From Patescibacteria group bacterium (GTDB lineage Bacteria; Patescibacteriota; Minisyncoccia; Phycocordibacterales; UBA1550): DNA of 64,000 bases. Positions 34,818-50,090 of the stretch are shown here, one piece after another. Every line of letters begins with the position of its first letter. Within the stretch, counting starts at the first letter, position 1. Under the pieces are notes generated by a model that worked only from the letters and a program-made list of their open reading frames with translations, had not been told where the DNA came from and searched no databases. Where the stretch lies: NCBI GenBank assembly GCA_038063615.1, contig JBBTUT010000003.1:1352-65351 (forward strand), given 5' to 3'. Made by a program: the position numbers and the translations under genes.

Positions 34818-35023
34818 GTCTGCCTCCTTTTTAAGAACTATGAATTTTATTCTTCCCTAAAACTACTCTTAAATCACCAAAAAGTCAAAAGTTGCGGGTT
34901 CTGCTATAATGCGGTTTGTATGTCTGACCAAAACAAAACAGAGGCAAATTCACTCGATCAAAAAGAACAGATGAAAAAAGGTTTGCGCGCGGTATGGCGC
35001 CATGTGCGACCGTTTAAAAAAGG

Positions 35024-35798
35024 GGGAAAGGGGGTCAGGTACCCTTTCCCTTTACTTCTGGGGAAAGGGGGTCAGGTACCCTTTCCCTTTACTTCTGATA
35101 TACTAACCATATGCCTCGCATCACTCGTACCGACATCGGCAATCATTGCTATCATGTCATAAACCGTGCCAACGCGCGTATGCCGATTTTCTTCGCAGAA
35201 AAGGACTATGTTTTGTTTGAGCAAGTCCTAGAGGAAGCGCAAGAAAAGTTCTCTATGAGAATCCTCGCATACTGCCTCATGCCAAACCATTTTCACCTTG
35301 TGTTGTATCCAAAAAATGATGGTGACATGGGAAAATTCATGCAATGGCTCACGCTCACCCATACCCAGCGCTGGCATCAGGCGAACAATACGAAAGGAAG
35401 TGGGCATCTCTACCAAGGAAGGTACAAATCTTTTTTGATACAGGGCGACAACCATCTTCTCTCTGTTATTCGTTATGTCGAGCGAAACTCGCTTCGCGCA
35501 AAACTTGTTAGAAAAGCAGAGAACTGGGGTTTTTGTAGTTTAGCACGACGACTATCAATCAACACAAGAAAAAAGAAACTCTTGTCAGCATGGCCGATAC
35601 CGGAGCCAAGAGATTATCTCTCATTTGTTAGCACCCCGCAAACAAAAGAAGAGGAAGAAAGCATCAGAGGATCTGTCGTAAGAGGGAAGCCGTTTGGTGC
35701 AGATGCATGGGCTACAAAAATGATCGAGAAGTTTGGACTTGAAGCTACCGTGCGCTCGACAGGGAGACCCAAAAAGGGTACCTGACCCCCTTTTTCTC
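35024..35798 (+). mobile_element. IS200/IS605-like (RAYT-like) element: two tandem 38-nt left hairpins, a Y1 transposase gene, and an inverted right hairpin
   Basis: Left: gggaaagggggtcaggtaccctttccctttacttctg twice (35024-35098). Right: aaaaagggtacctgaccccctttttctc (35771-35798), inverted. Transposase stop TGA lies inside the right hairpin. Confidence 0.7.
35111..35785 (+). CDS. IS200-like / REP-associated tyrosine transposase (Y1 HUH)
   Basis: HUH motif in CLMPNHFHLVLYP. Transposase_17-like N-terminus (YHVINRANARMPIF). Confidence 0.7.
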   Translation: MPRITRTDIGNHCYHVINRANARMPIFFAEKDYVLFEQVLEEAQEKFSMRILAYCLMPNHFHLVLYPKNDGDMGKFMQWLTLTHTQRWHQANNTKGSGHLYQGRYKSFLIQGDNHLLSVIRYVERNSLRAKLVRKAENWGFCSLARRLSINTRKKKLLSAWPIPEPRDYLSFVSTPQTKEEEESIRGSVVRGKPFGADAWATKMIEKFGLEATVRSTGRPKKGT

Positions 35799-36467
35799 AA
35801 AAGAGCGATGCGCGGGGTTGATATTCTGCGTCAATATGATATCCACCCGGGGGTGATTTGTACTGTTACCAAGAAAACGGTGAAATATGCCGAAGAAATC
35901 CTTCATGGGTTGGTTTCTGCCGGTTTCAAAAACATCGCTTTCAACGCCTTTTATAACACGGCATCGGAAAGTGGCGGAGACGAGTATGGGTTATCGGATA
36001 AAGACTGGTACGGTTTCCTTAGAGAAATCTTTGAATCATGGCTGGAAATTAATGATGAAACGATTCGTGTGCGCGAGCTGGATGCTATACTGGCGTGGAC
36101 GCTAGGGAAGTCAACAAACGAATGTTCTTTCCGCGGAAGTTGCGATAAATGGTTTGCGATTGACCACGCAGGTGATGTTTACCCTTGTGAAAGGTTTGGG
36201 AAGAAAGTCAATTTTGGAAGTCTTGATTCTCTTGGGGTCTACGGAAATCTCATTATGAGTCAAACTTTTCTTGAGTGGAAAGATTCAATCCAAGTATTAC
36301 CGAGTAAATGCAGGGCTTGCACTTTTCTATCATTGTGTAACAATGGTTGTAGTAGTCATAGGCAAGCTGATGATCAAGGGGTGCCTCTTTATACCTATTG
36401 TGAAAGTCGGCTGGATTTCTATGGTTTTGTACAAAATCGGATAAAGAAAGGAGGTGAGACGCTATGA
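35733..36467 (+). pseudogene. Radical-SAM/SPASM maturase (anSME-like) C-terminal fragment; N-terminal Cx3Cx2C core missing, interrupted by the IS element
   Basis: Twitch/SPASM Cys clusters (CSFRGSCDKWFAIDHAGDVYPCERF; CRACTFLSLCNNGC) align with the C-terminal half of anSME-type enzymes. No CxxxCxxC. The frame enters from the IS right hairpin. A separate 35-codon ORF upstream of the IS (34921-35025) has its own TATAAT. Confidence 0.6.
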
Positions 36468-37583: not shown

Positions 37584-37724
37584 AATTAAGGTCAATTGTA
37601 CCAAAACCCATAACTAGCATAAAAGATTTTTGTTCTTGTTGCTGGCATGGTATGATTGAATGGAAGAAAATGAGGTTGAGAGGGTTTTTGATTCTATCGC
37701 ATTAGGTATTTAAAAATATCATGA

Positions 37725-37967
37725 ATTCAGAATATTACTCTGTTGATGTGGATGTGTGTATAATTACTCGAAAAAAGCTTGACATTTTGTTCTTAGCGCG
37801 ATACTCTTTTGGTAGACAGTAGCGGATGCTTTGAGATTGGCTTGAGGTGACGCTAGGGTACTTTAAAAAGGGAGGTGATGCCACGCAACTTTGTAAGGTA
37901 TTAGGAGGTTCGGCTCGAGATTGGCTTGAGATGACTCCAAAGATTTCTTTAAAAAAGGAGATTTATT
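37725..37967 (+). promoter_or_regulatory. Promoter (TTGACA-N17-TACTCT) plus about 190-nt conserved 5' leader, copy A
   Basis: About 85% identical to 39200-39434. Contains two internal copies of GAGATTGGCTTGAG. Confidence 0.5.
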
Positions 37968-38189
37968 ATGAAAAAAAGTAAAAATGCTACACCCAGCCAT
38001 AACCCTTTTGCTTCTGAAGGGTTCAAACTATCTTCCTATACCCACAAATGCTGTTGCGTTGCGGTGCGTATAGGGGACACTGTGGACCTCCGTGACACCA
38101 AAAACCCAAATAGTCCCACGCTTTCTTTCAATAGGAAAGAGTGGAAGGCCTTTGTGAAAGGCGTGCAGTCCGGCGAGTTCAATGTCTGA
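37968..38189 (+). CDS. DUF397 (BldB-like) small protein, copy A
   Basis: FKLSSYTHKCCCVAVRIGDTVDLRDTKNPNSPTLSFNRKEWKAFVKGVQSGEFNV fits the DUF397 consensus (KSSYS..CVEVA...VRDSKDP.GP.L.F...EW.AF..GVK.GEFD). Confidence 0.55.
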   Translation: MKKSKNATPSHNPFASEGFKLSSYTHKCCCVAVRIGDTVDLRDTKNPNSPTLSFNRKEWKAFVKGVQSGEFNV

Positions 38190-38249
38190 GCTGAAGAAGC
38201 TTCGGAGGGGGTGTTTTTACACTCCCTCCGTTTTTATTTAAATAATAGT

Positions 38250-38993
38250 ATGGAAAAGAAACTAAAAATAAAAGTATCAGAAAAGAATTATATATACGGA
38301 CGACTGAGCGGATCATCTCGCCAACCGCTTTTTATCGTTGTCCACGGCCTTCCTGGGTCAATGGACGAAGATTTTTATCTAAACGCAACACGCTGGTTTG
38401 TAAAACGAGGGTATGCTTCGTTTCGTTTTAATCTTTATGGCACAGAGAAAAATTCTCGGCAAATGATGGACTCAACACTAAAAACACATGCATCCGATAT
38501 TGATGCGGCCGTGCGTTATTTCCGTGGGAAAAAATTTCAGAAGATATTTATTGCGGGGCACAGTTACGGTGGTCCAAGCATCTTACTTTCAAGTGAGCAA
38601 AAATTTGACGGAGCGGTCCTATGGGATCCTTCATATAAAGTATCATTCACAAAAACACAGCACGGTTTTCCTGCCGTAAAATATATCAAGGAGATAAAAG
38701 GGTATATTATGAATTGGGGAACAAATCTTATTGTCGGAAAGGCAATGGCTGACGAGGCAAATACGATAAACTGGAACGAACTCACCAAGAATTTTCATCT
38801 GCCCCTAAGAATCATCGCTGCTGGGAAAGGGCACTTGGTGCGCGGTGCGAAACATTATTTTAGGACGGCCAATGACCCCAAGGAACTGACAGTCATCAAA
38901 GACGCAACTCATTATTTTAATGATACGGAAGATATGCGCGAAAAAGTATTCAAAATTTCAGAAGATTGGTTCAAAAAAATATCAAATAGATAG
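38250..38993 (+). CDS. Alpha/beta-hydrolase fold protein (esterase/peptidase-like)
   Basis: Nucleophile elbow GHSYGG. ORF track starts at 38211. Confidence 0.6.
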   Translation: MEKKLKIKVSEKNYIYGRLSGSSRQPLFIVVHGLPGSMDEDFYLNATRWFVKRGYASFRFNLYGTEKNSRQMMDSTLKTHASDIDAAVRYFRGKKFQKIFIAGHSYGGPSILLSSEQKFDGAVLWDPSYKVSFTKTQHGFPAVKYIKEIKGYIMNWGTNLIVGKAMADEANTINWNELTKNFHLPLRIIAAGKGHLVRGAKHYFRTANDPKELTVIKDATHYFNDTEDMREKVFKISEDWFKKISNR

Positions 38994-38999
38994 AAGATA

Positions 39000-39050
39000 G
39001 CCGTGTTTTTTTGTTTTCTTTTTTTGTGCGGGGCGTGGTATGATTGGGGG
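39000..39050. repeat. 51-nt module gccgtgtttttttgttttctttttttgtgcggggcgtggtatgattggggg, duplicated exactly at 50127-50178
   Basis: Terminator tail plus GGCGTGGTATGAT extended -10 box. Identical copy upstream of the 50202 gene. Confidence 0.8.
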
Positions 39051-39199
39051 GAGAAGGGAAATTTAATTTAAAAAATCAATGGCAACAGATCATTTTGGGG
39101 AAGTTGTGCGAGCCGTGCGTAAGGAGGGACTTTATCCGGAAATCCCGATTGTTCAAAGTGCTGCAACGGAGACAAAAATTGTTGTCGACGGGAAAGACT

Positions 39200-39434
39200 T
39201 CTTACTCTGTTGATGTGGAGGTGTGTGGGTAATTACTCGAAAAAAGCTTGACAGTTTGTTCGTGGTGGGATACTCTGTGGGTAGACGGTAGTGGATGCTT
39301 TGAGGTGGGCTCGAGGTGGCGCTAGTGTACTTTAAAAAGAAAGGAGGTGATGAAAAATTGATATTGATTGGGAGGTTCGACTCGAGATTGGCTTGAGACG
39401 ACTCCAAAGAGCTCTTTAAAAAAGGAGATTTGCC
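39200..39434 (+). promoter_or_regulatory. Promoter plus conserved 5' leader, copy B
   Basis: Paralogous to 37725-37967. Confidence 0.5.
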
Positions 39435-39623
39435 ATGAAAAAGAGTAAGAACACTCGTGTGAGCAAGAATGAGCGTGGTGATAAAGTTATCACTCTGTGT
39501 GGGGTCAGTAACTGTTGCCCTACGGTGACGATTGATAGGGGAGGCAACCATGTCATCAAAGATGACTTCGGAGGTTCAGTCGTACTATCTAAAGAGCAGT
39601 TCGGGATGCTCAAAGAGGTTTAA
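39435..39623 (+). CDS. DUF397-like small protein, copy B (divergent)
   Basis: MKKSKN start shared with copy A. VITLCGVSNCCPTVTIDRGGNHVIKDDFGGSVVLSKEQFGML resembles the DUF397 core. Confidence 0.4.
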   Translation: MKKSKNTRVSKNERGDKVITLCGVSNCCPTVTIDRGGNHVIKDDFGGSVVLSKEQFGMLKEV

Positions 39624-39680
39624 CCGTAGTTCCACTGCATCAAGACGCCTCAAGCTTTACTGTGCGAGGCGTCTATTTTT

Positions 39681-40682
39681 ATGAAAAAACAACATACAGA
39701 ACTTTTATTTGTTCAGATTACCCCTGAGTGTAATATGGGTTGTCGATATTGTCCTTTTTCTAACCAAAATAATCTTATAAATAGACAAAATAATTTTAGT
39801 GCGCAGATCAATTCAATCAAAAACACTTTTGACTCAAAATCTTTCACAGAGAGTTCTTTCGGTGAGTTAATTGTATATGGAGGAGAGGCGCTTCTTTACT
39901 TTGACCAAGTTAAAAGAATAATTAATGAATATAAAAATTTCCGACATTACGGAAAAATAACAGTATGCACTAACGGCATTCTTATTAATCAAGATGTCAT
40001 TACCTATTGTAAAACCAACAAGATAAATGTGACTATAAATATGGATGGGGATTTTAATTTAGTCGCAAGTAATAAATTTTTTTCTAAAACAGATTGGGCT
40101 AAACTCACTGGTAATATAAAAGGACTTCATTCAGAGGGAATACCATATGATTTCTCTACGACCATTACACCTCACTTTATTGAAAATTTTAATTCACAAG
40201 TAAAATTTTTAGAATCTTTGCACCCGAGAATGATAGGTTTTAATTTTTTGAGGGATACTCAAGCACAAAAAGAATTTGGAATAAGCAACCCTGATAATTA
40301 TTTGCAAGATGCTACTTCTTTGGTGTTTAAATATAACTCAGTTGTGAATTTTAATCGAAATAAAAAACTGAGAGCTTTTAAAGAGAAAAAACAGATTTCT
40401 GATTGTATATGTTCTGGGATGGGTATAACTATCCTCGCAACCGGTGAATATACGACATGCGGAATATTTCCATCTCAAAGATGCAGGACATCAAGAGAGG
40501 TAATCAGCATCATGAAGGAAAATTATAAAAAATTATTTTTAGACATAGAACTAGGACAAAACATAAAAGACTTACCAACTTTTGGAGGAGGTTGTTCAAA
40601 GCTCTTGCGAGAGGACAATAAAAGATTTTCTTATTATAATGCTTGGGTAAGTTTTGAACAGTTTAATTATGAAAAATTATAA
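39681..40682 (+). CDS. Radical SAM enzyme with C-terminal SPASM domain
   Basis: CNMGCRYC (Cx3Cx2C) at residues 17-24. C-terminal Cys clusters (CICSGMG...CGIFPSQRC...GGGC). Confidence 0.75.
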   Translation: MKKQHTELLFVQITPECNMGCRYCPFSNQNNLINRQNNFSAQINSIKNTFDSKSFTESSFGELIVYGGEALLYFDQVKRIINEYKNFRHYGKITVCTNGILINQDVITYCKTNKINVTINMDGDFNLVASNKFFSKTDWAKLTGNIKGLHSEGIPYDFSTTITPHFIENFNSQVKFLESLHPRMIGFNFLRDTQAQKEFGISNPDNYLQDATSLVFKYNSVVNFNRNKKLRAFKEKKQISDCICSGMGITILATGEYTTCGIFPSQRCRTSREVISIMKENYKKLFLDIELGQNIKDLPTFGGGCSKLLREDNKRFSYYNAWVSFEQFNYEKL

Positions 40683-41457
40683 AATAGGGGTTATTGGCGG
40701 CTCTGGGATATACACTCTGCAAGACTATAAGTTTTTTGCAGGTAATTTTGACAATGAGTACAAAGATAGTGAGTTGGGAATAGAAAAATATAAATTTAGT
40801 AATTGTGAAATATATTTTTTATCTAGACATGGCAAAAATCATATGATCCTACCTCACGAGATAGATTATTTGACCAATATTAAGGCATTTGATGATTTGA
40901 AAGTTGATTGCATCATATCTTTTTGCACTGTTGGTTCATTAGATTCTAATTTCCAGCCCGGCTTGTATGTTACCCCAAAAGATATCATTGATTTTACCTA
41001 CAACAGGAAAGGATGGAACTACACCAAAGAAAACAAGCATGTTGATATACAGCCAGTTTTTGGCGAGGATTTAATGAGAGTTTGTAAGCAACTGTTTAAT
41101 AATATTAATGTTCCATTGAATAATGAGGGAACACTTGTTGTAATTGAAGGACCAAGGTTTGCTACTCTGGCAGAGCAAAATATGTACAAAATATTCGGTG
41201 GTAGTTTTTTGAATATGACCCAAGCGCAAGAAATTTATTTGTCGCATGTTTTCCAAATCCCATTTATTTCTCTGTGCCACATAACCGACCTGACCTCAAT
41301 CGTAAATAAAAACTATGACCTAACTTCAAGTGATGCGATATCGGTATTCAAAAGCAATTACAGTAAAGTGGAGAGGATATTGAGCGCGCTGGTCAAATAT
41401 TTAAGTGAAAATAAACCAGAAATAAAGTATCATAGTGATAAGCAAACTTTCGTGTAA
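40672..41457 (+). CDS. Purine nucleoside/5'-methylthioadenosine phosphorylase family protein (MTAP-like)
   Basis: IGVIGGSGIY N-terminus, SRHGKNHMILPHEIDY, VIEGPRFATLAE, HITD: PNP_UDP_1/MTAP pattern. Overlaps the radical-SAM gene end. Confidence 0.65.
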   Translation, partial: KNYKIGVIGGSGIYTLQDYKFFAGNFDNEYKDSELGIEKYKFSNCEIYFLSRHGKNHMILPHEIDYLTNIKAFDDLKVDCIISFCTVGSLDSNFQPGLYVTPKDIIDFTYNRKGWNYTKENKHVDIQPVFGEDLMRVCKQLFNNINVPLNNEGTLVVIEGPRFATLAEQNMYKIFGGSFLNMTQAQEIYLSHVFQIPFISLCHITDLTSIVNKNYDLTSSDAISVFKSNYSKVERILSALVKYLSENKPEIKYHSDKQTFV

Positions 41458-41550: not shown

Positions 41551-43227
41551 ATGATAAAAGTACAAAATCTTCAGAAAAGCTACGGTTCATTAACAGTGCT
41601 CTCCGATATTTCTTTTTCACTTGGAAGAGGACAGAAGGTGGCATTGGTTGGACTCAATGGAACCGGGAAAACAACTCTGCTTAAAATTGTGGCCGGTCTT
41701 GAGGAGCAGGATGCTGGAAAGATCGACCTTGCAACGGATGCCTGTATCGGTTATCTACCTCAAGATACGGGCCTTTCGGGGAACGAACCCATTATGGACT
41801 ATCTGAGGAAAGTGTCTGGCATTGATGTGCTCGAGAAAGAAATAGGAATTTTGTCTTCTGAGCTGGGTGACCCTGAAAAGGTCAAGCGTTACGGTGATGT
41901 TCGCAGTAAATATGAGCATCTCGACGGTTACTCTTTTGCTCACAGAGCAGAAGTGATGCTTTCAGGATTCGGGCTTGAAGATGTTGGGCTTGACCGCCCA
42001 CTGTCTAATCTGAGCAGTGGGCAGAAAAGCAAAGTGGTACTTGCGGGTATTTTGCTTAAGGGTGTTGATTTGCTTTTGCTTGATGAGCCTACGAACAACC
42101 TCGATCTCCCTGCTCTCATTTGGCTCGAGGATTTTCTGCAAAAATCCAAGGCATCATGCATCGTTGTTTCGCATGACCGCAGATTTCTCGACAAAGTTGT
42201 AAGAAAGATCTTCGAAATTGATTGGCGTACACGCGCACTTACCATCACTGGAGGCACATATAGTGATTATCTGGAAATGGTGGCAAAGCGTGTTGCATGT
42301 CAAAAGGAAGAGTACCGGCTTCAACAGGAGGAAATCGAGCGTCTGAACGAACGGGCGCGCGAAAAGAAGGCGGATGCTACTCGAGGATCACACTGGTCTC
42401 CACGCGACAATGACAAGTTTTTAAAGGGGTTTAAGCGTGATCGTGCTACGAAGTCTTCGAAGGCGGCAAAGGCTATTGAAAAGCGGGTAGAACAAATGGA
42501 TAAGATTGAAAAGCCAATAGAAAGAAAGCCGTTTGAGATACCTCTCAATGCTGAAGTTGATTCTGGTACGCTTGATGTTCGTCTCTCAGATGTTGTGATT
42601 GAATACCCAAACACTTTCCGTATTGGCCCACTGTCTTTTGAGGCACGCTATGGTAGCAGGGTCGGCATAATGGGTCTAAACGGATCAGGAAAATCGACAT
42701 TGCTAAAGACCATAACTGGACAGATGGCGCCTACTCACGGGAAAATTGAGGTTGGTTCTGGTCTCAGGATTGGCAATATGATGCAGGAGCACGAAACGCT
42801 TCCTCGCGAACGCACATTGCTTGAGTTTCTTGAAGAACGGGCACATCTAAGCAAGCAGGATTCATATGCCAAACTGTCAAAGTTTGGGTTCGATGAAAGA
42901 CAGGTCAAGTTGCCTATCAGCACCTTAAGTCCGGGTGGGCGCGCGCGCCTCCTGCTAGCTTTATTCTCAGCCCAGTCGGTCAATATGCTTGTTTTGGATG
43001 AGCCAACAAACCATCTCGATATCGAAGCACTGAATGCCCTTGAAGAAACACTGAGAACTTATCGTGGCACGGTACTGCTCGTCTCTCATGACAGATATTT
43101 CATCGAAAAAGCTTCGCTGGATACAACTTATGTTTTGTCTGACGGAGCTCTGACAAAGATTCCTGATTTTAAGACTTATGTTAAAACAGCAGAAGAGAAA
43201 GCACGAAAGTTGCTTAAACTGTTATGA
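41551..43227 (+). CDS. ABC-F family ATPase (two ABC domains, no TM domain)
   Basis: GLNGTGKTTLLK / LSSGQKSKVVLA / LLLDEPTNNLD, then GLNGSGKSTLLK / LSPGGRARLLLA / LVLDEPTNHLD with an inter-domain linker. Confidence 0.85.
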   Translation: MIKVQNLQKSYGSLTVLSDISFSLGRGQKVALVGLNGTGKTTLLKIVAGLEEQDAGKIDLATDACIGYLPQDTGLSGNEPIMDYLRKVSGIDVLEKEIGILSSELGDPEKVKRYGDVRSKYEHLDGYSFAHRAEVMLSGFGLEDVGLDRPLSNLSSGQKSKVVLAGILLKGVDLLLLDEPTNNLDLPALIWLEDFLQKSKASCIVVSHDRRFLDKVVRKIFEIDWRTRALTITGGTYSDYLEMVAKRVACQKEEYRLQQEEIERLNERAREKKADATRGSHWSPRDNDKFLKGFKRDRATKSSKAAKAIEKRVEQMDKIEKPIERKPFEIPLNAEVDSGTLDVRLSDVVIEYPNTFRIGPLSFEARYGSRVGIMGLNGSGKSTLLKTITGQMAPTHGKIEVGSGLRIGNMMQEHETLPRERTLLEFLEERAHLSKQDSYAKLSKFGFDERQVKLPISTLSPGGRARLLLALFSAQSVNMLVLDEPTNHLDIEALNALEETLRTYRGTVLLVSHDRYFIEKASLDTTYVLSDGALTKIPDFKTYVKTAEEKARKLLKLL

Positions 43228-43275: not shown

Positions 43276-43414
43276 GCATGGATTTTAGTATGCCGATGTA
43301 TTCAATGCAAAATTTCTTTCATTTTTCGCATCGGGCGTGGTATAATTGAAATGTAAAAGTTCGTACAAATACTGATTCGAGCGTTGGGTATGAGAAAAAT
43401 AGTTTGTTTTTAAA

Positions 43415-44221: not shown

Positions 44222-45343
44222 ATGAAGTTAAAATCAAATCTCATAGACCAGTTGGACAAGGCAGACAGCCTATTTAAAAACGAAATAATATCCGAATTTG
44301 GAATTCCTGTTTATAATCCAGAATCTCATTATTTGGAGCTAACAAAATCAAAGTATTATTGGGCGTTACTTACCCTCCGCCATTGCCTCAAGGTCTCATC
44401 TGACCAGTACTTTAGTGTTGATGTTGGGGCTACTAACATAGATTTATTTATGATGACACCAAGTGTTTCTTCTCCAATGGGACCAGGTTCTGATTCTGAG
44501 GCAATACCGATAAAGTTTGGGAACCTGGTTACTTTTCTTGTTGATTCGTCCCAGTTTGGTTTTGAGCCACTACTAATTAATAATTTTGATAAAGTATATT
44601 GCTACCTCCCTTCAATGCGTGGTGAAGATCACGACAAGAGGCATCTTAATCAATTTTATCATTGTGAAGCAGAAATAAGAGGAGAATTAGGTGATTTAAC
44701 CCCAATCATAGAAAAATATATTAAGATTTTGGCCGAGACATTAAAAGCTTTGCCAAATCTAACTGAAAAAATTAGTGCTAATATGTCCGCCACAAATAGT
44801 GCAATAGAAGCTATAATATCGGCTGATAAATTCCCTGTGATTACTTTTGACGAAGCGATTGTGTTGTTGGAAGAAAACGGGCATCAGTCACTTGTCAATT
44901 ATTCCGAACATGGGCGGGACATTACTTCTTATGGGGAAATTATTTTATCAAAGATGTTAGGATTTAAAACACCTTTTTGGGTGCACGGCTATGATCGTGG
45001 CAGAGTTGCTTTTTATCAAAAGCCAGACCCTAATAACCTTGACAAGGTTATTAATGCTGACTTAATCTTCCCACCACTTTTTGAAGGGGCATTTGGTGGG
45101 GAAATTGTTGGATGCGGACAGAGACAGGACAATAAAAGTGAGATACTTGAGTCATTGAGAATTCAAAATATATCATCTGAGCCATACGAATGGTATATAA
45201 ATTTGAGAGAGTTACCAGAGTACAAAACCACTTCCGGTTTTGGGCTTGGCATAGAAAGATTTATAACATGGGCACTCGGTCATGATGATATTAGAAATTC
45301 TATTCCGTACCCTCGTCTGAAGAATGTACTAACCTTACCATAA
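44222..45343 (+). CDS. Class II aaRS-like catalytic-core protein (AspRS/AsnRS paralog lacking anticodon-binding domain; AsnA / AS-AR-like)
   Basis: Motif 2-like MRGEDHDKRHLNQFYHCEAEI and motif 3 GFGLGIERFITW. Homologous to the C-terminal half of the aspS at 58349. No OB-fold N-terminus. Confidence 0.65.
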   Translation: MKLKSNLIDQLDKADSLFKNEIISEFGIPVYNPESHYLELTKSKYYWALLTLRHCLKVSSDQYFSVDVGATNIDLFMMTPSVSSPMGPGSDSEAIPIKFGNLVTFLVDSSQFGFEPLLINNFDKVYCYLPSMRGEDHDKRHLNQFYHCEAEIRGELGDLTPIIEKYIKILAETLKALPNLTEKISANMSATNSAIEAIISADKFPVITFDEAIVLLEENGHQSLVNYSEHGRDITSYGEIILSKMLGFKTPFWVHGYDRGRVAFYQKPDPNNLDKVINADLIFPPLFEGAFGGEIVGCGQRQDNKSEILESLRIQNISSEPYEWYINLRELPEYKTTSGFGLGIERFITWALGHDDIRNSIPYPRLKNVLTLP

Positions 45344-45347
45344 AAAT

Positions 45348-46208
45348 ATGAAAAATATGCCAAACTACTACAATAAAGTTACTGAATATTTTAACGAGAA
45401 AGCATCTAGTTATGATGAAGTTGACAACCAAAAATATTGGGTGTTGTCCGATATGTTCTTTAAAGAAATTCTACGAAGAGAACTCCCGGCACTTATTGGG
45501 GACAAAAAACATATCAACCTTTTAGATGCTGGAGCTGGCACTGGTCGCTGGACAATTTTTTTTGATGAAATATTTAAAGATCAATATGATATAACAGGCA
45601 CCCTTGTAGATATTTCAAGTAAAATGCTTGATGAGGCATCTAAAAAATTAAAGGCAAGTGGCGCAGACACCCGCTTTAAGATTAAGAACACTAATATTGA
45701 AAATCTCGAAGATTTCCCCAATAAGAATTTTGATTTAAGTTTATCTTTCTATAATGTCATAAGCTTCGTGGAAGATCCTAAACGGGCACTTACTGAAATA
45801 CATCGAGTTTTGAGTGATGATGGTGTGCACATAAGTATTGTAGCTAATAAATATCATGCATACTACTTTTCGTTCCTTACTAACCGGCTCTCATCAATAG
45901 ATTCAATAAAAAAAGACTCGAAGGTTCGTTTCAATGACCTCATGCCGGCTATCCACTGCTTTACCCCAGAAGAACTAAAAGATCTTTATCTCTCGGCTGG
46001 TTTTAAAACCTGTAGGGTTATTGGTGGCCCAAATTTTATTTATCCTGGAATGGAAGAAACTTATGTGCACGGCAGCACCCCCTCATTGCAAGAGAAGCTT
46101 GCTGAGGCTGATAATTTCCAAAAAATACTAGAAGCCGAACTTGAGTACTACAACATGCCTGATATTGTGGGAAGAGGGAATGTATTACTCGCAATTGCCA
46201 CTAAATAG
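45348..46208 (+). CDS. Class I SAM-dependent methyltransferase
   Basis: Motif I LLDAGAGTGRWT. Confidence 0.65.
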   Translation: MKNMPNYYNKVTEYFNEKASSYDEVDNQKYWVLSDMFFKEILRRELPALIGDKKHINLLDAGAGTGRWTIFFDEIFKDQYDITGTLVDISSKMLDEASKKLKASGADTRFKIKNTNIENLEDFPNKNFDLSLSFYNVISFVEDPKRALTEIHRVLSDDGVHISIVANKYHAYYFSFLTNRLSSIDSIKKDSKVRFNDLMPAIHCFTPEELKDLYLSAGFKTCRVIGGPNFIYPGMEETYVHGSTPSLQEKLAEADNFQKILEAELEYYNMPDIVGRGNVLLAIATK

Positions 46209-46218
46209 AAACATTCTT

Positions 46219-47259
46219 ATGTCTACTCTCTCACTAAAACCACACTATTTGGAAAAAGGGGATACCGTCGGGCTAATAAGCCCAGCTGCCCCCCTTGCTG
46301 GGTTGGTGCCTCACCGTACTGACCAAGGAATCAAAATGTTGGAAGAGCTTGGTTTTAAGATAAAAATTGGATTGAACGCTATGAATATAACTGGCTATAC
46401 TGCTGGCACTGCAGAAGAAAGGGCGTCAGATATAAATAACTTTTTTGCTGACCCAGAAGTAAAAGGAATTGTTTCTTTTATAGGGGGGAATCATTCGAAT
46501 CAAATTTTAGAATATCTTGATTTTGATATTATTAAAAAAAACCCGAAAGTATTTATTGGGTACTCTGATATTACTGTTCTGCATTTAGCCATATATGCAA
46601 TGACTGAGCTAACTACTTTTTATGGTCCAGCAGTTTTGACACAGTTTGCTGAAAATCCTGCAATAATGGAATATACAAAAAAATATTTTTTGAAAGCAGT
46701 TACACAAAAAAGTCCAATTGGCGTGATCGAGCAATCAGTAGAGTGGACAGATGAAACTCTAAATTGGTTCACAAAAGAAGATTTGCAAGGAGCACGCCAG
46801 ATGAAGCTTAATTCCGGATGGAGATGGCTTAAGAGTGGTACGGCTCAGGGGAAATTACTCGGTGGGTGTCTTGCCTCAATGATGCATCTTCGTGGAACAA
46901 AGTATTGGCCAGATTTTGAAAAGGCAATTTTATTTTGGGAAATCTCCGAGGGTGAGGCAGATTTTCGTTTAGGAGAGAGTGTGTCAACAATAGATGCGCA
47001 TTTAACCGATTTGGAGTTGTCTGGCGTCTTCACCTCTATTCAGGGAATGATAGTCGGTCGTCCTTTTGGATATGACTCAGGCCAAGAACAAAAATTAATA
47101 GAAAAAATTTTAGAGAGAACAAAAAAGTATTCATTCCCAATTCTTTATGGTGTTGATATCGGACACACAGACCCGATGATCACTCTTCCTATTGGGGTAA
47201 AAGTAATGATTAATTCAGACAAGAATATTTTTGAAATTTTAGAGAGTGGCGTAATGTAG
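46219..47259 (+). CDS. Peptidase S66 family (LD-carboxypeptidase LdcA / microcin C immunity MccF-like)
   Basis: GYSDITVLH nucleophile motif. C-terminal DIGHTDP catalytic His region. ORF track begins at 46141. Confidence 0.7.
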   Translation: MSTLSLKPHYLEKGDTVGLISPAAPLAGLVPHRTDQGIKMLEELGFKIKIGLNAMNITGYTAGTAEERASDINNFFADPEVKGIVSFIGGNHSNQILEYLDFDIIKKNPKVFIGYSDITVLHLAIYAMTELTTFYGPAVLTQFAENPAIMEYTKKYFLKAVTQKSPIGVIEQSVEWTDETLNWFTKEDLQGARQMKLNSGWRWLKSGTAQGKLLGGCLASMMHLRGTKYWPDFEKAILFWEISEGEADFRLGESVSTIDAHLTDLELSGVFTSIQGMIVGRPFGYDSGQEQKLIEKILERTKKYSFPILYGVDIGHTDPMITLPIGVKVMINSDKNIFEILESGVM

Positions 47260-47379
47260 AACCTCATGGTTGAATGTACCACCGGGGCACTTGACAAATT
47301 ACAAGAACTAATATACATTGTTGCTAGTTTAGTTTTTTGAAATTTCACAAAGGAAACAAACAAATAAGGAGGTGCTAAG

Positions 47380-48675
47380 ATGACACATACAATGTTTGTC
47401 CAGGCGCATTTGGGTGCTGAGTTTTCCGGGATGGCTAGAGTTTTATCCAAGAGGCATATCGGCAAGATTTTATTTTGTGGGGCACGCCTTTTGGAAGAAA
47501 ACATTCAGTTAGTATTTAGAGAGGAACACCTCGCAAACTATCGACACATCGTTAGTCTGCCGAGAGGGAGTTTGCTCAAGGTCTCTGGGAATAAAATACA
47601 TACTCGGAGCGGCACACCATCACTGGAAATAACTTCCGCAGACATTATCCATATCGTCAAAGAAAACTTACCAGATAAACAAAATTGCCTGAGTAGGTCG
47701 CTTCGATATCGTCGCCGAACGATTGATCTTATGACGAACGACACATCTTTCGTCTTTTTTAGGAGGCAATCAGAGGTCTTGATGATAATAAGGAAGTTTC
47801 TTTATGATTTGGGGTATCATGAGTTCATTACTGGCACATTGCAGGAAGTGTTTGAAGGTGGACAGTCTGTGTCTTTCGACACATACTGCAAGGCGACTGG
47901 TAAAAATGTTACTCTTAGCTTAACAAGTGAACTGAAGCTTAGGCGGTTGCTTGTCTCTGGGTTTGATCGTGTGTTTGAGATTGCTCAATCATTTCGAAAT
48001 GAAGGTTCTGACAAACTACATTCTCCTGAGTTTACTCTTTTGGAAATGTATGCTCGCAGTTCTGGACATTTAGAAATGATGGAATTGCTTGAGTCAATGG
48101 TTTCAGAAATTGCTGGGAAAATACAAGATGATTCCGATGTCCTGTTTACTCCAGAAAGATACCGTGCTCCGTTTCAGCGTATTCTTTTTCGAGAGGTATT
48201 CGAAAATCATTTTGGTGATTTTAGCAGATTTAACATTCAGTATTTCTCAGAATTAATGCCAGAGATGTTCAATGTGGCAATGTCTCATTTCACTTGGACA
48301 ATGAAGCTCATTGAAAAAGTGATTCTTCCAACTATTCGTGGACCAGCATTTCTTGTTGAGTTACCAGTTGGAATGTCTCCATTCGTTAAAAATTCAAGCG
48401 ATGGTGTAACCACACAGAGAGCATTCTTTGTCGCTGATGGATTATTTGTCGCCGATATTTATTCTGACGAGAATAATCCAGACATAATACAAAAGAATCT
48501 CGAACAGCAATCAATGGCGGTTGGGAATGTCTTAAATAAAGATTATGTTGAGATATTATCGCTTGGGCTTGGCGAGTCAGCCGGTCTAGGCATGGGCTTA
48601 AATCGTTTATCGATGCTCTTTTTGGGCACTTTGCCTCGCGATATTAAAGAAACTATATTGTACCCAATTCTCTAA
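47380..48675 (+). CDS. Lysyl-tRNA synthetase-like paralog (class IIb, divergent)
   Basis: OB-fold-like N-terminus. Motif 2 FRNEGSDKLHSPEFTLLEMY. Degenerate motif 3 GLGMGLNRLSMLF (Asn in place of the conserved Asp). Confidence 0.6.
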   Translation: MTHTMFVQAHLGAEFSGMARVLSKRHIGKILFCGARLLEENIQLVFREEHLANYRHIVSLPRGSLLKVSGNKIHTRSGTPSLEITSADIIHIVKENLPDKQNCLSRSLRYRRRTIDLMTNDTSFVFFRRQSEVLMIIRKFLYDLGYHEFITGTLQEVFEGGQSVSFDTYCKATGKNVTLSLTSELKLRRLLVSGFDRVFEIAQSFRNEGSDKLHSPEFTLLEMYARSSGHLEMMELLESMVSEIAGKIQDDSDVLFTPERYRAPFQRILFREVFENHFGDFSRFNIQYFSELMPEMFNVAMSHFTWTMKLIEKVILPTIRGPAFLVELPVGMSPFVKNSSDGVTTQRAFFVADGLFVADIYSDENNPDIIQKNLEQQSMAVGNVLNKDYVEILSLGLGESAGLGMGLNRLSMLFLGTLPRDIKETILYPIL

Positions 48676-48689
48676 AAAGGAGGTCTATC

Positions 48690-50090
48690 ATGAACCGTTA
48701 CCCCGATTCTTTTTACAAGAGTCACTCTATTCTTCAAGTAATATCTGAGCATGAAGATTTAGTTAAGGATGTAACCGAAGTCACTACTGCAGGGAGAGTG
48801 CTTGCGCGACGAGCTTTTGGTAAAATCATATTCCTCGATATCCAGGATTTTTCTTCAAAGATCCAGTGCTATGCGAGGGAGGATATCTTAGGTTCGACTA
48901 AACAGGTATTTATTGCGAAGCAACTCAAAGTTGGAGATGTTGTTGGCGTGCGTGGCACAGCGTTCCTCCCAAAATCAGGAGAAAAGTCTATTAAGCTTAC
49001 TGATATATTTTTGCTTTCGGAAACAACTCTTCCGTTCCCAGAAAAATATCACAGGCTAGTAGACCAAGAGGCCCGTTATCGCCAGCGTTATCTTGATCTC
49101 ATTATGAATTCTGATACGCGGAAGATTTTCCAGACACGGTTCTTGTTGTTGAAAGAACTGCGCCGTTTCCTTGATGGTCGTGGCTTTATTGAGGTAGAAA
49201 CACCGATATTCCAACATACCCCTTGCGGTGCATCGGCGAACCCATTTCGGACACGGCACGACGCAAAAGGAATTGATCTTTATCTTCGTATCTCACCAGA
49301 GACATATCTTAAGCAGTTGATAGTAGCTGGGATAGATAGGGTGTATGAGATTGGTAAAAACTTTCGAAACGAGGGGGTTGACCCGACACATCTTCAAGAG
49401 TTTACGATGCTCGAGTTCTATGTCTCCTATTGGAGCTATCGTGAGAATATCGTGTTTGTTCAAGAGCTGTTGCGAGAAATCATTCAGAGGAGCACTGGCG
49501 GGCTGTCTATCCCATGCAACGAGATAACACTCGATTTTGGCGCAGAATGGAGCCATGTGAAATATCGAGATGTTTTACTTTCTGGAACGGGGATAGATGT
49601 TCTTGAGATGCGGAATACTACGGAGCTTCTGGCTGAAATGAAGCGGTGTGGTGTTGAAATTGAGCATGAGAAAGTGGAGTCGCTGGGTTCGATGGTTGAT
49701 AAGCTGTACAAGCGTTTTGTACGACCAAATCTTGTTCAGCCAACAATCTTAATGCAGCATCCAGCATATTTACTGCCTCTTGCTCGCCCAAGTGATGAAG
49801 ACCCTCGTGTTGCGGACTCATTTCAGGTACTGGTTAACGGGTGGGAGATAGTCAAAGCGTATTCGGAACTGGCTGACCCGGAGCTACAACGGTCACTCCT
49901 CGAAGGTCAATCTCAGTCTCGTAAAGACGGCGACAAAGAAGCCATGTTTTTAGATGAAGATTTTCTTCTTTCTTTAAAGTATGGCATGCCACCTGTCTCT
50001 GGGGTTGGAATTGGTATTGATCGGCTTCTCGCGATTCTTACTAATCAACGAAACCTCAATGAAGTTGTTTTGTTCCCTTTGATGAAGTAG
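48690..50090 (+). CDS. lysS: Lysyl-tRNA synthetase (class IIb), canonical motifs
   Basis: Motif 1 region, motif 2 FRNEGVDPTHLQEFTMLEFY, motif 3 GVGIGIDRLLAIL. N-terminal anticodon-binding OB fold. Confidence 0.75.
   Translation: MNRYPDSFYKSHSILQVISEHEDLVKDVTEVTTAGRVLARRAFGKIIFLDIQDFSSKIQCYAREDILGSTKQVFIAKQLKVGDVVGVRGTAFLPKSGEKSIKLTDIFLLSETTLPFPEKYHRLVDQEARYRQRYLDLIMNSDTRKIFQTRFLLLKELRRFLDGRGFIEVETPIFQHTPCGASANPFRTRHDAKGIDLYLRISPETYLKQLIVAGIDRVYEIGKNFRNEGVDPTHLQEFTMLEFYVSYWSYRENIVFVQELLREIIQRSTGGLSIPCNEITLDFGAEWSHVKYRDVLLSGTGIDVLEMRNTTELLAEMKRCGVEIEHEKVESLGSMVDKLYKRFVRPNLVQPTILMQHPAYLLPLARPSDEDPRVADSFQVLVNGWEIVKAYSELADPELQRSLLEGQSQSRKDGDKEAMFLDEDFLLSLKYGMPPVSGVGIGIDRLLAILTNQRNLNEVVLFPLMK

Follow-up and report, generated by a model that had tools for sequence, protein, structure and literature searches.

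QhpD, a radical-SAM enzyme, forms Cys-to-Asp/Glu thioethers in the small gamma subunit of quinohemoprotein amine dehydrogenase. In hopanoid synthesis (HpnH/HpnG) and in the futalosine pathway (MqnE/MqnB), a radical-SAM enzyme adds an adenosyl group to a lipid or small molecule and works in one pathway with a nucleoside phosphorylase or nucleosidase of the PNP_UDP_1 superfamily. 5'-deoxyadenosine has been shown to inhibit radical-SAM enzymes and to be cleaved in vivo by MTA phosphorylase in Synechococcus (PMC8102628). Canonical DUF397 proteins have regulators as their partners (PMC10294661, PMC10364602).

We analysed a 64,000-nucleotide stretch of DNA (the window) from a groundwater Patescibacteria genome and found that this genome carries a reduced, divergent copy of a widespread operon, in which a gene for a small cysteine-rich protein (gene B) is followed by a radical-SAM gene and a gene for an MTAP-like phosphorylase. 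No description of this module was found in Pfam, NCBIfam or the searchable literature. Our sequence comparisons suggest that the radical-SAM enzyme probably modifies B and that the MTAP-like enzyme probably clears the by-product of the reaction. The order of B-type gene, hairpin, radical-SAM gene and overlapping MTAP-like gene is present in all eight close loci (the window, L008-L013 and L078). A DNA pattern for LCGxxGCCPT yielded 28 further, more distant B-type genes from Patescibacteria classes, Bacillota and Actinomycetota (Pseudonocardiales); a radical-SAM gene lies directly downstream in each of the 26 distant loci with enough 3' DNA, and an MTAP-like gene follows it, mostly overlapping, in all 20 that could be assessed. 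Overall, 34 of 34 loci, which come from several phyla and range in GC content from 0.33 to 0.64, show the order B-type, radical SAM, MTAP-like with overlaps between stop and start codons, while the genes upstream of the module show no conservation across loci. All genes of the module are under purifying selection.

Gene B (39435-39623; all features described here lie on the forward strand) encodes a 62-amino-acid mini-protein with the motif LCGxxNCCPTV...KDDFGG. The first-pass annotation had assigned two small proteins of this locus to DUF397, which an HMM search upholds for gene A (44.1 bits against Pfam PF04149, cut-off 24) but not for gene B, since neither B nor 100 of its relatives, searched at lenient thresholds, matched Pfam DUF397, and no model for B is present in Pfam or NCBIfam. 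Our data indicate that B belongs to a separate family that is remotely DUF397-like through profile-profile comparison only (hhalign probabilities of 79% and 70%, in the same register). This family (approximately 100 clusters; 103 representatives) has the motif LCGxxGCCPTV...DDFGG. Across 91 sequences C22, C28, P29 and D44 never vary and C27, D43, G46, G47 and V49 are kept in at least 90%, while the N-terminus is variable and has no leader-like conservation. AlphaFold2 confidently predicts that B folds (pLDDT 89) into five strands and a C-terminal helix, and its dN/dS is 0.04-0.11.

Between gene B and the radical-SAM ATG lies a hairpin (39643-39674) followed by a T-run (39643-39680 together). 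It is kept in seven of seven close loci, where 4 of 11 pairs are altered on both sides, and similar hairpins stand between B-type and radical-SAM genes in most distant loci. The element looks like an attenuator or a partial terminator. The downstream gene (39681-40682) encodes a 333-amino-acid protein that had been described as an intact radical SAM/SPASM enzyme. Its radical-SAM identity stands (Pfam Radical_SAM, 46.2 bits, cut-off 29.5; CxxxCxxC at C17/C21/C24), but SPASM gave no match, and only four C-terminal cysteines are conserved (C242, C244, C260 and C305), forming an auxiliary-cluster domain that is twitch-like rather than SPASM. The best NCBIfam matches of the window enzyme are peptide or protein maturases throughout, all under cut-off, with CcpM and PapB on top, and the closest solved structure is CteB (5WGG). 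All of the nearest families and structures (CteB, anSME, QhpD, PapB and FibroRumin) modify peptides or proteins. The distant-locus enzymes are 440-490 amino acids long because they are extended at the N-terminus, and the added part can be aligned with the N-terminal region of CteB; the enzyme of the window clade is without this substrate-binding extension.

The module resembles the sactipeptide and ranthipeptide systems (CteB/SCIFF, PapB, CcpM) in the succession of small cysteine-containing gene, hairpin and radical-SAM maturase, and in the structure and family matches given above. However, its scores remain under the cut-offs, its enzyme has four auxiliary cysteines and no SPASM domain, B is a conserved folded domain of 60 amino acids without a leader-plus-core arrangement, and the module contains an MTAP-like gene and no protease or exporter genes. 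QhpD/QhpC is similar in that its radical-SAM enzyme has auxiliary Fe-S cluster(s) and is coupled to a small cysteine-rich protein, not a short peptide, and B likewise has invariant Cys and Asp residues. QhpD (TIGR03906) is among the better matches of the window enzyme (34.6 bits) and of the L055 enzyme (89.1 bits), both far under the cut-off of 453. In contrast to the QhpD system, the module is without dehydrogenase subunit genes, the fold of B is DUF397-like, and the MTAP-like and ABC-F genes have no counterpart.

The gene for the MTAP-like phosphorylase (40669-41457; 262 amino acids; Pfam PNP_UDP_1, 103.8 bits) shares 14 nt with the 3' end of the radical-SAM gene, or 29 nt when counted from a TTG start. 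The overlap had been noted at first pass and is real, but the protein misses the MTAP family cut-off (TIGR01694, 170.9 bits against 274.85). Its closest solved structures are archaeal MTAPs, and the window protein has TDLT in place of the TDYD motif, so that the second Asp is missing. Like HpnH/HpnG and MqnE/MqnB, the module pairs a radical-SAM enzyme with a member of the PNP_UDP_1 superfamily, but here the radical-SAM enzyme is peptide-maturase-like and its partner appears to be a protein. In the window, the MTAP-like gene is followed by one for a ribosomal-protection-like ABC-F ATPase (41551-43227; NF000355, 421.5 bits, cut-off 380). An ABC-F gene comes at this place in L008 and L078 as well and in 9 of approximately 13 assessable distant loci, whereas L009-L013 have a reduced ABC-F-type form there. 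A Udk/PRK-like (uridine-kinase-like) kinase recurs in 6-7 loci and is absent from the window clade. Together with tRNA synthetases, the ABC-F and uridine kinase genes are housekeeping-type neighbours.

These data suggest that B might be an abundant protein substrate of a peptide-maturase-like radical-SAM enzyme with one auxiliary-cluster domain, and that the MTAP-like enzyme might remove 5'-deoxyadenosine; we give this reading an approximately even chance of being correct. It builds on the conserved gene order, the hairpins with compensatory changes, the peptide- and protein-modifying relatives of the enzyme, the CteB-like extension in distant loci, the conserved Cys and Asp residues, and confident fold of B, the purifying selection on all genes, and the reported inhibition by 5'-deoxyadenosine and its cleavage by MTA phosphorylase (PMC8102628). 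A strong promoter and a stabilising leader would cause B to be made in excess, only a fraction of transcripts would pass the hairpin into the enzyme genes, and the MTAP-like gene would be translationally coupled to the radical-SAM gene. The radical-SAM enzyme would then modify B post-translationally at the Cys loop (C22, C27, C28, P29) and/or the neighbouring Asp loop (D43, D44, G46, G47), with a Cys-to-Asp thioether cross-link or a related H-atom abstraction on Cys as the likeliest chemistry and one SAM spent per modification event. Phosphorolysis of 5'-deoxyadenosine by the MTAP-like enzyme would relieve product inhibition and recover adenine in a bacterium that presumably relies on purine salvage, as other Patescibacteria do. 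A first-pass proposal that the small DUF397-like proteins are radical-SAM substrates or partners, with the MTAP-like enzyme acting on 5'-deoxyadenosine, is strongly supported by cross-phylum linkage for gene B but not for gene A, whose neighbour is an alpha/beta-hydrolase. Several observations count against B as a substrate: it is predicted to fold compactly and its N-terminus varies, unlike a leader-plus-core peptide, the window clade enzyme has no N-terminal extension, and ordinary radical-SAM RiPP clusters are without their own MTAP. Strict conservation of the MTAP-like gene, even in phyla that normally have housekeeping MTA/5'-deoxyadenosine enzymes, hints at a more specific role. In addition, this reading leaves the frequent ABC-F and uridine-kinase-like neighbours unaccounted for, no match attains the cut-off of a radical-SAM or MTAP family, and the window MTAP-like protein lacks the second Asp of the TDYD motif.

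The three Cys and the Asp of B could equally be metal or cluster ligands, and B may instead be an accessory of the radical-SAM enzyme (a metal/Fe-S electron donor, a cluster chaperone or a regulatory subunit), the true substrate being a small molecule or other protein encoded elsewhere. We consider this unlikely. A well-folded (predicted) protein with three conserved cysteines and acidic residues in adjoining loops and no conserved leader-like N-terminus would suit such a helper, as would the missing substrate-recognition extension of the window clade enzyme, and Patescibacteria often lack the usual flavodoxin-type reductants. However, an attenuator hairpin that puts the small gene in excess over the enzyme would be expected for a stoichiometric substrate more than for a catalytic helper, adjacent cysteines are unusual cluster ligands, and the distant-locus enzymes retain a peptide-maturase-like N-terminal region. 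It is also improbable that the linkage merely reflects gene neighbourhood rather than shared chemistry, with the MTAP-like, ABC-F and kinase genes serving housekeeping salvage and translation, and A and B being DUF397-type regulators or toxin-like proteins (cf. XRE-DUF397/BldB-WhiJ) located upstream by chance. The DUF397 membership of A, the remote similarity of B, the action of canonical DUF397 proteins with regulators (the L079 pair is an example) and the housekeeping-type neighbours would agree with this, yet no HTH/XRE gene was found within approximately 10 kb of A or B among the Pfam matches of called genes, and the module keeps its order and overlaps across phyla while the upstream genes vary.

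The strict conservation and translational coupling of the MTAP paralogue, in phyla expected to possess housekeeping enzymes anyway, would also be consistent with adenosylation, by analogy with HpnH/HpnG and MqnE/MqnB: the radical-SAM enzyme would attach a 5'-deoxyadenosyl group to B (e.g., at Cys) or to a bound ligand, the MTAP-like enzyme would cleave adenine from the MTA-like adduct, and the Udk/PRK-like kinase, where it recurs, would act on the ribosyl product. In chemical terms, a Cys-S-5'-adenosine adduct would be an analogue of MTA, and there is a weak HpnG-family match. Since the closest relatives of the radical-SAM enzyme are H-abstracting peptide maturases rather than MqnE or HpnH, and the window clade has no kinase, we regard this as quite improbable. 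Least probable is a modified nucleoside or anti-ribosomal product (cf. prokaryotic viperins and nucleoside antibiotics), for which the radical-SAM enzyme, phosphorylase and kinase would act on nucleosides, the ABC-F protein would protect the ribosome, and B would be a carrier or regulator. Weak pVip profile matches (42 bits), the adjoining ABC-F gene that exceeds its family cut-off, and the kinase and phosphorylase genes point this way, but the pVip matches are limited to the generic radical-SAM core and score under the peptide-maturase matches, viperins to our knowledge have no auxiliary-cluster domain, and a strictly conserved, folded cysteine-rich protein would be left unexplained.

Gene A (37968-38189) encodes a 73-amino-acid protein with an H-K-C-C-C motif that, by its Pfam match, is a true DUF397 protein. 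Its homologues fall into 23 clusters, DUF397 throughout, its dN/dS of 0.11 reflects purifying selection, its AlphaFold2 model has a pLDDT of 82, and tblastn with gene A matched actinobacterial DUF397 genes. DUF397 outside actinomycetes had been called unexpected, which is true of the literature (PMC7159879), although NCBI already labels A as a Patescibacteria DUF397 protein. With the actinomycete XRE-DUF397/WhiJ-BldB pairs gene A has in common a conserved Cys strand, an R-D-T/S motif and a terminal helix (PMC7159879), and B aligns in the DUF397 register. In contrast to those pairs, there is no adjacent HTH gene here and the partners are enzymes, a hydrolase for A and the radical-SAM and MTAP-like enzymes for B; canonical DUF397 proteins have a single Cys, whereas A has CCC and B has C-x4-CC. 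A terminator-type hairpin with a T-run (38203-38230; 12-bp stem, 8 G-C pairs) separates gene A from the gene for an alpha/beta-hydrolase (38250-38993; Pfam Hydrolase_4 and Abhydrolase_1; GHSYG nucleophile elbow), and an equivalent hairpin lies 3' of gene A in five of five A-type loci. In all five lineages examined, the conserved neighbour of A is an alpha/beta-hydrolase or hydrolase-like gene and not radical SAM; the pairing is seen in L073/L074 and L077, with weak hydrolase-like partners in L072 and L075. Gene A would work in a separate conserved pair with the hydrolase.

Genes A and B are each preceded by a copy of a direct repeat. Unit A (37735-37984) consists of an A-tract, TTGACA (37779-37784), a structured leader of approximately 185 nt, the Shine-Dalgarno sequence AAGGAG (37955-37960) and the first six codons of gene A; unit B (39202-39451), which is fused to gene B, comprises a copy of the promoter-like region (TTGACA at 39248-39253), of the leader and of the MKKSKN codons. 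The duplication reported at first pass, as near-identical units of approximately 240 nt, is present, but the units of approximately 250 nt, these six codons included, are similar rather than near-identical (83-87% identity; BLAST E 2.7e-66). The claim of a promoter in each unit was not confirmed, since no good -10 box lies 16-18 nt from TTGACA and a consensus scan did not call this promoter. Proteins of the A family usually begin with MKKSK, which B-type proteins elsewhere do not have. The promoter-like region, the leader and the first six codons therefore seem to have been copied from gene A onto gene B in the window lineage, which would lead to co-expression of both small proteins.

STAB-SD type 5' mRNA stabilisers carry a non-initiating Shine-Dalgarno sequence. 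The leader is similar to these in that one hairpin lies close to its 5' end and that an extended match to the Shine-Dalgarno sequence, AAAGGAGGTGAT, is present far upstream of the real start. RNAalifold predicts two consensus hairpins from four leaders: H1 (37822-37853; 39291-39322 in unit B) retains all pairs, several through one-sided G-U changes, and H2 (37904-37938; 39371-39405 in unit B) shows compensatory double changes at two pairs and is also kept in L008. Between them lies an internal Shine-Dalgarno-like AAAAAGGGAGGTGATG (37865-37880; 39340-39352 in unit B), the ATG of which starts an 8-codon upstream ORF (37878-37904) that ends at H2, similar to leader-peptide attenuators, in three of the four leaders; the unit B version has just three codons. 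Unlike either type of element, the leader has no Rfam match and was found only in the window lineage and its sisters; in L077 a conserved counterpart of unit A precedes the A orthologue. The leader evolves slower than synonymous sites.

Our data indicate that gene B (39435-39623, forward strand), which encodes a 62-aa Cys-rich mini-protein, heads a conserved module. On the same strand it is followed by a hairpin with a T-run (39643-39680), a radical-SAM gene (39681-40682), an MTAP-like gene that overlaps the latter (40669-41457) and an ABC-F ATPase gene (41551-43227). We regard this module as a putative system in which a radical-SAM enzyme matures a small protein, its novelty lying in the substrate fold and the built-in MTAP paralogue. 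No description of it was found in Pfam (2025), NCBIfam 20.0, PADLOC or the searchable literature on DUF397, radical SAM, MTAP, RiPPs and CPR. The close relatives of the radical-SAM enzyme form a small family with 41-88% identity to the window enzyme, and on readable contigs each of them has a homologue of gene B (B-type gene) directly upstream and an MTAP-like gene directly downstream. The close loci read were L008, L009, L010, L011, L012, L013 and L078; the B-type gene of L009 had previously gone uncalled.

More distant B-type genes were sought with a degenerate DNA pattern for LCGxxGCCPT(V/I/M) in one genome per species, a pattern that carries no information on neighbouring genes. This search yielded 28 further B-type genes. 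The next gene on the same strand encodes a radical-SAM protein at all 26 distant loci with enough downstream DNA, and these proteins are only 22-27% identical to the window enzyme. The MTAP-like gene stands third, usually overlapping, in 20 of the 20 assessable distant loci. According to their record titles these loci belong to Saccharibacteria, Paceibacterota, Kerfeldbacteria, Uhrbacteria, Minisyncoccales, a Bacillota MAG and two Pseudonocardiales MAGs (GC 0.61-0.64 at the latter two loci); some are labelled as 'Gammaproteobacteria' MAGs, labels that we do not trust. Patescibacteria have tiny genomes with very few biosynthetic genes. That a three- or four-gene module is nevertheless kept in many of their lineages, and is also found in Bacillota and Actinomycetota, suggests an important and unstudied function. 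No gene upstream of the B-type gene is conserved.

We found that a G+C-rich hairpin with a T-run separates the small gene from the radical-SAM gene in all seven close loci, where four of 11 pairs are altered on both sides with pairing kept. Most distant loci have a similar hairpin (14 of 27 when no mismatch is allowed, and more on visual inspection), and there is none in the actinobacterial loci, where the two genes overlap. Such a hairpin would cause the small protein to outnumber the enzymes, as in the layout of many precursor-plus-maturase operons.

The first-pass annotation had assigned the gene B protein to DUF397, and the HMM check did not bear this out: PF04149 was absent at E ≤ 0.1, DUF397 was not among the Pfam families listed for 91 family members, and ten further members, actinobacterial ones included, gave no DUF397 match at E ≤ 10. 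Gene B has no family in Pfam, NCBIfam or PADLOC, its profile found no match in a PDB sequence search, and a B-type query found none in a plasmid collection. An exhaustive HMMER search gave 103 representatives, mostly 50-80 aa, with the signature (V/I)xLCGxxGCCPT(V/I)...(K/R)DDFGGxVxLTxEQ(W/F). Among 91 members C22, C28, P29 and D44 are invariant, and C27, D43, G46, G47 and V49 are conserved in at least 90%. Gene B is thus a distinct family without a database model.

Profile comparison nevertheless points back to DUF397. With hhalign, the gene B family aligned to the Patescibacteria DUF397 family with 79% probability (E 1.6e-5) and to three canonical actinobacterial DUF397 domains with 70% (E 4.2e-5). 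Both alignments share one register, in which C28 corresponds to the conserved Cys, K-D-D to R-D-S/T and EQF/W to EW; many gene B members also end in GEL or GELDV, comparable to the GEF end of DUF397. Cross-HMM scores between gene B and DUF397 were weak (9-12 bits), with shuffled controls at no more than 8.6 bits. [quoted passage not shown] At the aligned positions gene B reads C28-P-T and K42-D-D, and gene A, the 73-aa DUF397 gene of the same region, reads C30-V-A and R42-D-T; the Glu of CxE is missing from both. The AlphaFold2 models of both proteins consist of strands and a C-terminal helix, that of gene B (pLDDT 89, pTM 0.72) being compact with five short strands. Foldseek searches of the PDB gave no match for gene A and nothing significant for gene B, where the KhtT N-domain was best (TM ~0.7, E ~0.4). 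We conclude that a distant relationship of the gene B family to DUF397 is probable but not certain. It does not have the build of a classical RiPP precursor, with conserved leader and released core: the N-terminus is the variable part, and the remainder is a conserved domain with a confident predicted fold. Furthermore, no conserved protease or exporter gene belongs to the module.

The radical-SAM assignment of the enzyme was confirmed by its CxxxCxxC motif (C17/C21/C24), kept in all full-length relatives, and by PF04055 (46.2 bits against 29.5). The SPASM domain also proposed for it did not hold, since neither PF13186 nor TIGR04085 matched within 39681-40682; the SPASM match is likewise absent from the enzyme of L055, a distant locus. 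Only C242, C244, C260 and C305 are conserved C-terminally, and four cysteines would be enough for one auxiliary cluster in a twitch-like arrangement. None of the named maturase families (CcpM, PapB, SCIFF/CteB, HxsB, AmcB, QhpD, anSME, FibroRumin) was reached at the NCBIfam cut-off, the best scores being 64.6 bits against 500 for the window enzyme and 121.8 against 400 for the L055 enzyme. NF038283 scored 37.3 bits with the window enzyme (cut-off 180), and pVip models matched only part of the protein, the radical-SAM core, at 26-42 bits, short of a pVip assignment. The window-clade enzyme has 333 aa and no N-terminal extension, and its nearest solved structure is CteB. The distant-locus enzymes have 440-490 aa; their top families, all of them maturases of peptides or proteins (FibroRumin, QhpD, nif11, PapB, CcpM and anSME), score far below cut-off and their nearest solved structures are anSME, ChlB and CteB, the alignment with CteB starting in its N-terminal region, before the radical-SAM core.

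For the third gene, membership of the PNP_UDP_1 superfamily stood (103.8 bits), and the narrower MTAP reading fell short of its model (TIGR01694, 170.9 bits against a cut-off of 274.85). The window protein is closest to archaeal MTAPs and has TDLT instead of the base-binding motif TDYD. The L055 protein keeps TDYD and scores 252.7 against 274.85 and 271.5 against 306 bits. All the genes show purifying selection, with dN/dS values of 0.04-0.11 (gene B), 0.17-0.21 (radical-SAM gene) and 0.10-0.14 (MTAP-like gene).

We consider the chances evenly balanced that gene B is the substrate, that the radical-SAM enzyme modifies it and that the MTAP-like enzyme clears 5'-deoxyadenosine, a reading drawn from sequence. 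The gene B protein would be a stoichiometric substrate, modified in its invariant Cys loop and/or its Asp loop, which, from the topology of the model, are predicted to project from the same end of the sheet. Our best guess for the chemistry would be formation of a Cys-Asp thioether, by analogy with QhpD and PapB. The MTAP-like enzyme would then remove 5'-deoxyadenosine, a step proposed because radical-SAM enzymes are inhibited by this compound, which is cleaved by MTA phosphorylase in Synechococcus (PMC8102628). If each molecule of an abundant substrate costs one SAM, adenine would be drained from a host presumed to depend on purine salvage, which would explain the translational coupling of the salvage enzyme to the radical-SAM enzyme. 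If so, the module may reveal a new class of radical-SAM maturase substrate, a folded DUF397-like domain, and the first by-product removal by an MTAP paralogue built into the operon, for which the searchable literature held no earlier case. It may also offer a handle on the long-enigmatic DUF397/BldB fold.

We considered four rival explanations. The genes might be neighbours without shared chemistry; their order recurs at close and distant loci alike. Gene B might instead be a metal- or redox-active accessory protein of the enzyme; its conserved cysteines would suit this role as well as that of substrate, and the hairpin-based excess of small protein over enzymes is the arrangement expected of a substrate. 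A third rival is adenosylation followed by adenine removal. The 5'-deoxyadenosyl group would, for example, be placed on a Cys of the DUF397-like domain, and once the MTAP-like enzyme has taken off adenine, either a protein with a ribosyl(-phosphate) tag or a cofactor derived from the protein would be left. We regard it as rather improbable that the mini-protein is modified by such chemistry other than an ordinary thioether and that the product, for example a ribosyl-tagged protein, acts on translation. Such a product would explain the accompanying ABC-F ATPase, and it would give DUF397-like domains their first biochemical role.

The downstream genes bear also on a fourth rival, a nucleoside or anti-ribosomal product. 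The ABC-F gene follows the MTAP-like gene in the window clade and in nine of about 13 assessable distant loci, and its window copy is ribosomal-protection-like (NF000355, 421.5 bits against a cut-off of 380). In the low-GC clade of L009 (7731-9053) and L010 (4276-5604) the ABC-F protein is reduced to 440 aa and its start overlaps the MTAP-like stop by 4 nt. A uridine-kinase/PRK-family P-loop protein of ~215 aa recurs in 6-7 loci (L041, L045, L055, L065, L066 and L070 among them), ~2.3-4.7 kb downstream of the B-type gene and after the MTAP-like or ABC-F gene; it is missing from the window clade. The ABC-F neighbour may link the module to translation, and under the substrate reading as well this could reveal a connection between protein modification and an ABC-F translation factor.

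Gene A (37968-38189, forward strand) is separate from the B module and is paired with a hydrolase. Its DUF397 assignment was upheld by the HMM check (PF04149, 44.1 bits, E 2.4e-11, gathering threshold 24), and all 23 clusters of its homologues carry PF04149, nearly all with an H-K-C-C-C motif. The only paper we found that discusses the fold describes it as 'currently found only in actinobacteria' (PMC7159879). A tblastn search from gene A reaches actinobacterial DUF397 genes, including a canonical HTH/XRE-DUF397 pair on a Streptomyces plasmid (locus L079). No such partner appeared near the small genes of the window: Pfam matches of called genes within ~10 kb on either side include no HTH family. 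Gene A is followed on the forward strand by a strong hairpin with a T-run (38203-38230) and an alpha/beta-hydrolase gene (38250-38993), and this order of gene, terminator-type hairpin and hydrolase is seen at five independent A-type loci, those with gene A homologues. The partner is clearly an alpha/beta-hydrolase in the window, L073/L074 and L077; in L072 and L075/L076 it is a 191-196-aa protein with sub-threshold hydrolase similarity only. The comparison of distant loci found no A-type gene near a B module outside the window. Proteins identical to those of genes A and B also occur on Hainich aquifer contigs (well H41).

In another Patescibacteria lineage (L073 2946-4415, L074 818-2287) the A-type DUF397 and hydrolase genes lie beside a different peptide-maturase pair, a gene for a 53-aa Cys-rich peptide and one for a 408-aa radical-SAM protein with an N-terminal extension. 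In two lineages A-type genes with HKCCC adjoin genes for DUF305, a CsoR-type metal repressor and a heavy-metal P-type ATPase (L072 3053-3577; L075 611-3710; L076 578-1415). These neighbours hint at a possible link between triple-Cys DUF397 proteins and the handling of copper or other metals.

Genes A and B are preceded by repeat units A (37735-37984) and B (39202-39451), both on the forward strand, which had been described as near-identical promoter and leader units. The duplication stood (83-87% identical over ~235-250 nt, BLAST E 2.7e-66; both units span the first six codons, MKKSKN), while the promoter call proved weak. The candidate has a perfect TTGACA with an upstream A-tract, its only -10 options are GATACT (15 nt) and TACTCT (17 nt), and a consensus promoter scan left the TTGACA site uncalled. 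The leader folds into two hairpins with some compensatory change; behind each come an A-rich stretch and a Shine-Dalgarno sequence. The Shine-Dalgarno match behind hairpin 1, AAAGGAGGTGAT, is extended, and the start codon after it is too near to be used efficiently; in three of the four leader copies this start opens an 8-codon upstream ORF whose stop lies at the foot of hairpin 2. The leader also precedes the A orthologue of L077 and the B orthologues of L078 and L008, and was not found before the B-type genes of L009, L010 and all distant loci or the A-type genes of L072-L076. Because it is missing from these more distant loci, it is not ancient, and we abandoned a riboswitch reading for that of a leader confined to this lineage that would serve expression or stability. 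Rfam 15 gave no match at gathering score in the whole window, and only chance-level matches at E ≤ 10 in 37600-39700.

If L077 and L078 are taken as one lineage, the A and B leaders are 83% and 82% alike within a lineage, and orthologous leaders are 75% and 80% alike between lineages. Jukes-Cantor divergence is 0.19-0.31 for the leader against synonymous divergence of 0.37-0.9 and above in adjacent genes. This low divergence and within-lineage likeness indicate functional constraint on the leader and, probably, gene conversion between its two copies. Proteins of the A family normally start with MKKSK, which B-type proteins elsewhere lack; the repeat unit was therefore most probably copied from gene A to gene B. 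The radical-SAM and MTAP-like genes have a GC of 0.31 and 0.34, against 0.45 for gene B, 0.46 for the ABC-F gene and 0.445 for the window; compared with the distant locus L041, the ABC-F protein is 81% identical and the radical-SAM and MTAP-like proteins only 25-28%. These contrasts suggest that a low-GC version of the cassette took the place of the resident one upstream of the ABC-F gene, which stayed, and was then connected to copied gene A expression signals.

Further upstream of both units lies a promoter-like motif, TGGTATGATTG (repeat family D3), with copies at 37627-37658, 39015-39046 and 43317-43348. It consists of a T-rich stretch and GGC(G/A)TGGTAT(G/A)ATTG and resembles an extended -10 box. 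Since two of the three copies precede the duplicated leader units, the real transcription starts may lie further upstream than the TTGACA site.

A 44-aa ORF (39079-39213, forward strand) has its stop within repeat unit B and is called as a gene on public contigs. We presumed it to be the N-terminus of a Kbl/BioF-type aminotransferase; such a remnant found no match in PDB, Pfam or NCBIfam and was not retained. If the likeness were real, the ORF would be the residue of a gene cut short on arrival of the B cassette. Downstream, 44222-50090 holds three class-II aminoacyl-tRNA-synthetase-like genes, one encoding a 373-aa AsnA/AsnRS-like protein without an anticodon-binding domain; among them are genes for a methyltransferase and a Peptidase_S66 protein (LD-carboxypeptidase/MccF family). 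Upstream, a Y1 transposase gene (35111-35785; IS200-like, possibly REP-associated) has a perfect 37-nt tandem repeat (35023-35096) on one side and an inverted 21-nt copy (35773-35793) on the other. It adjoins a gene fragment (35733-36467) that, unlike the 39681-40682 enzyme, matches SPASM. Its similarity is confined to the C-terminal 60% of anaerobic-sulfatase-maturase-type radical-SAM/SPASM enzymes, and it looks like a second, disrupted radical-SAM gene.
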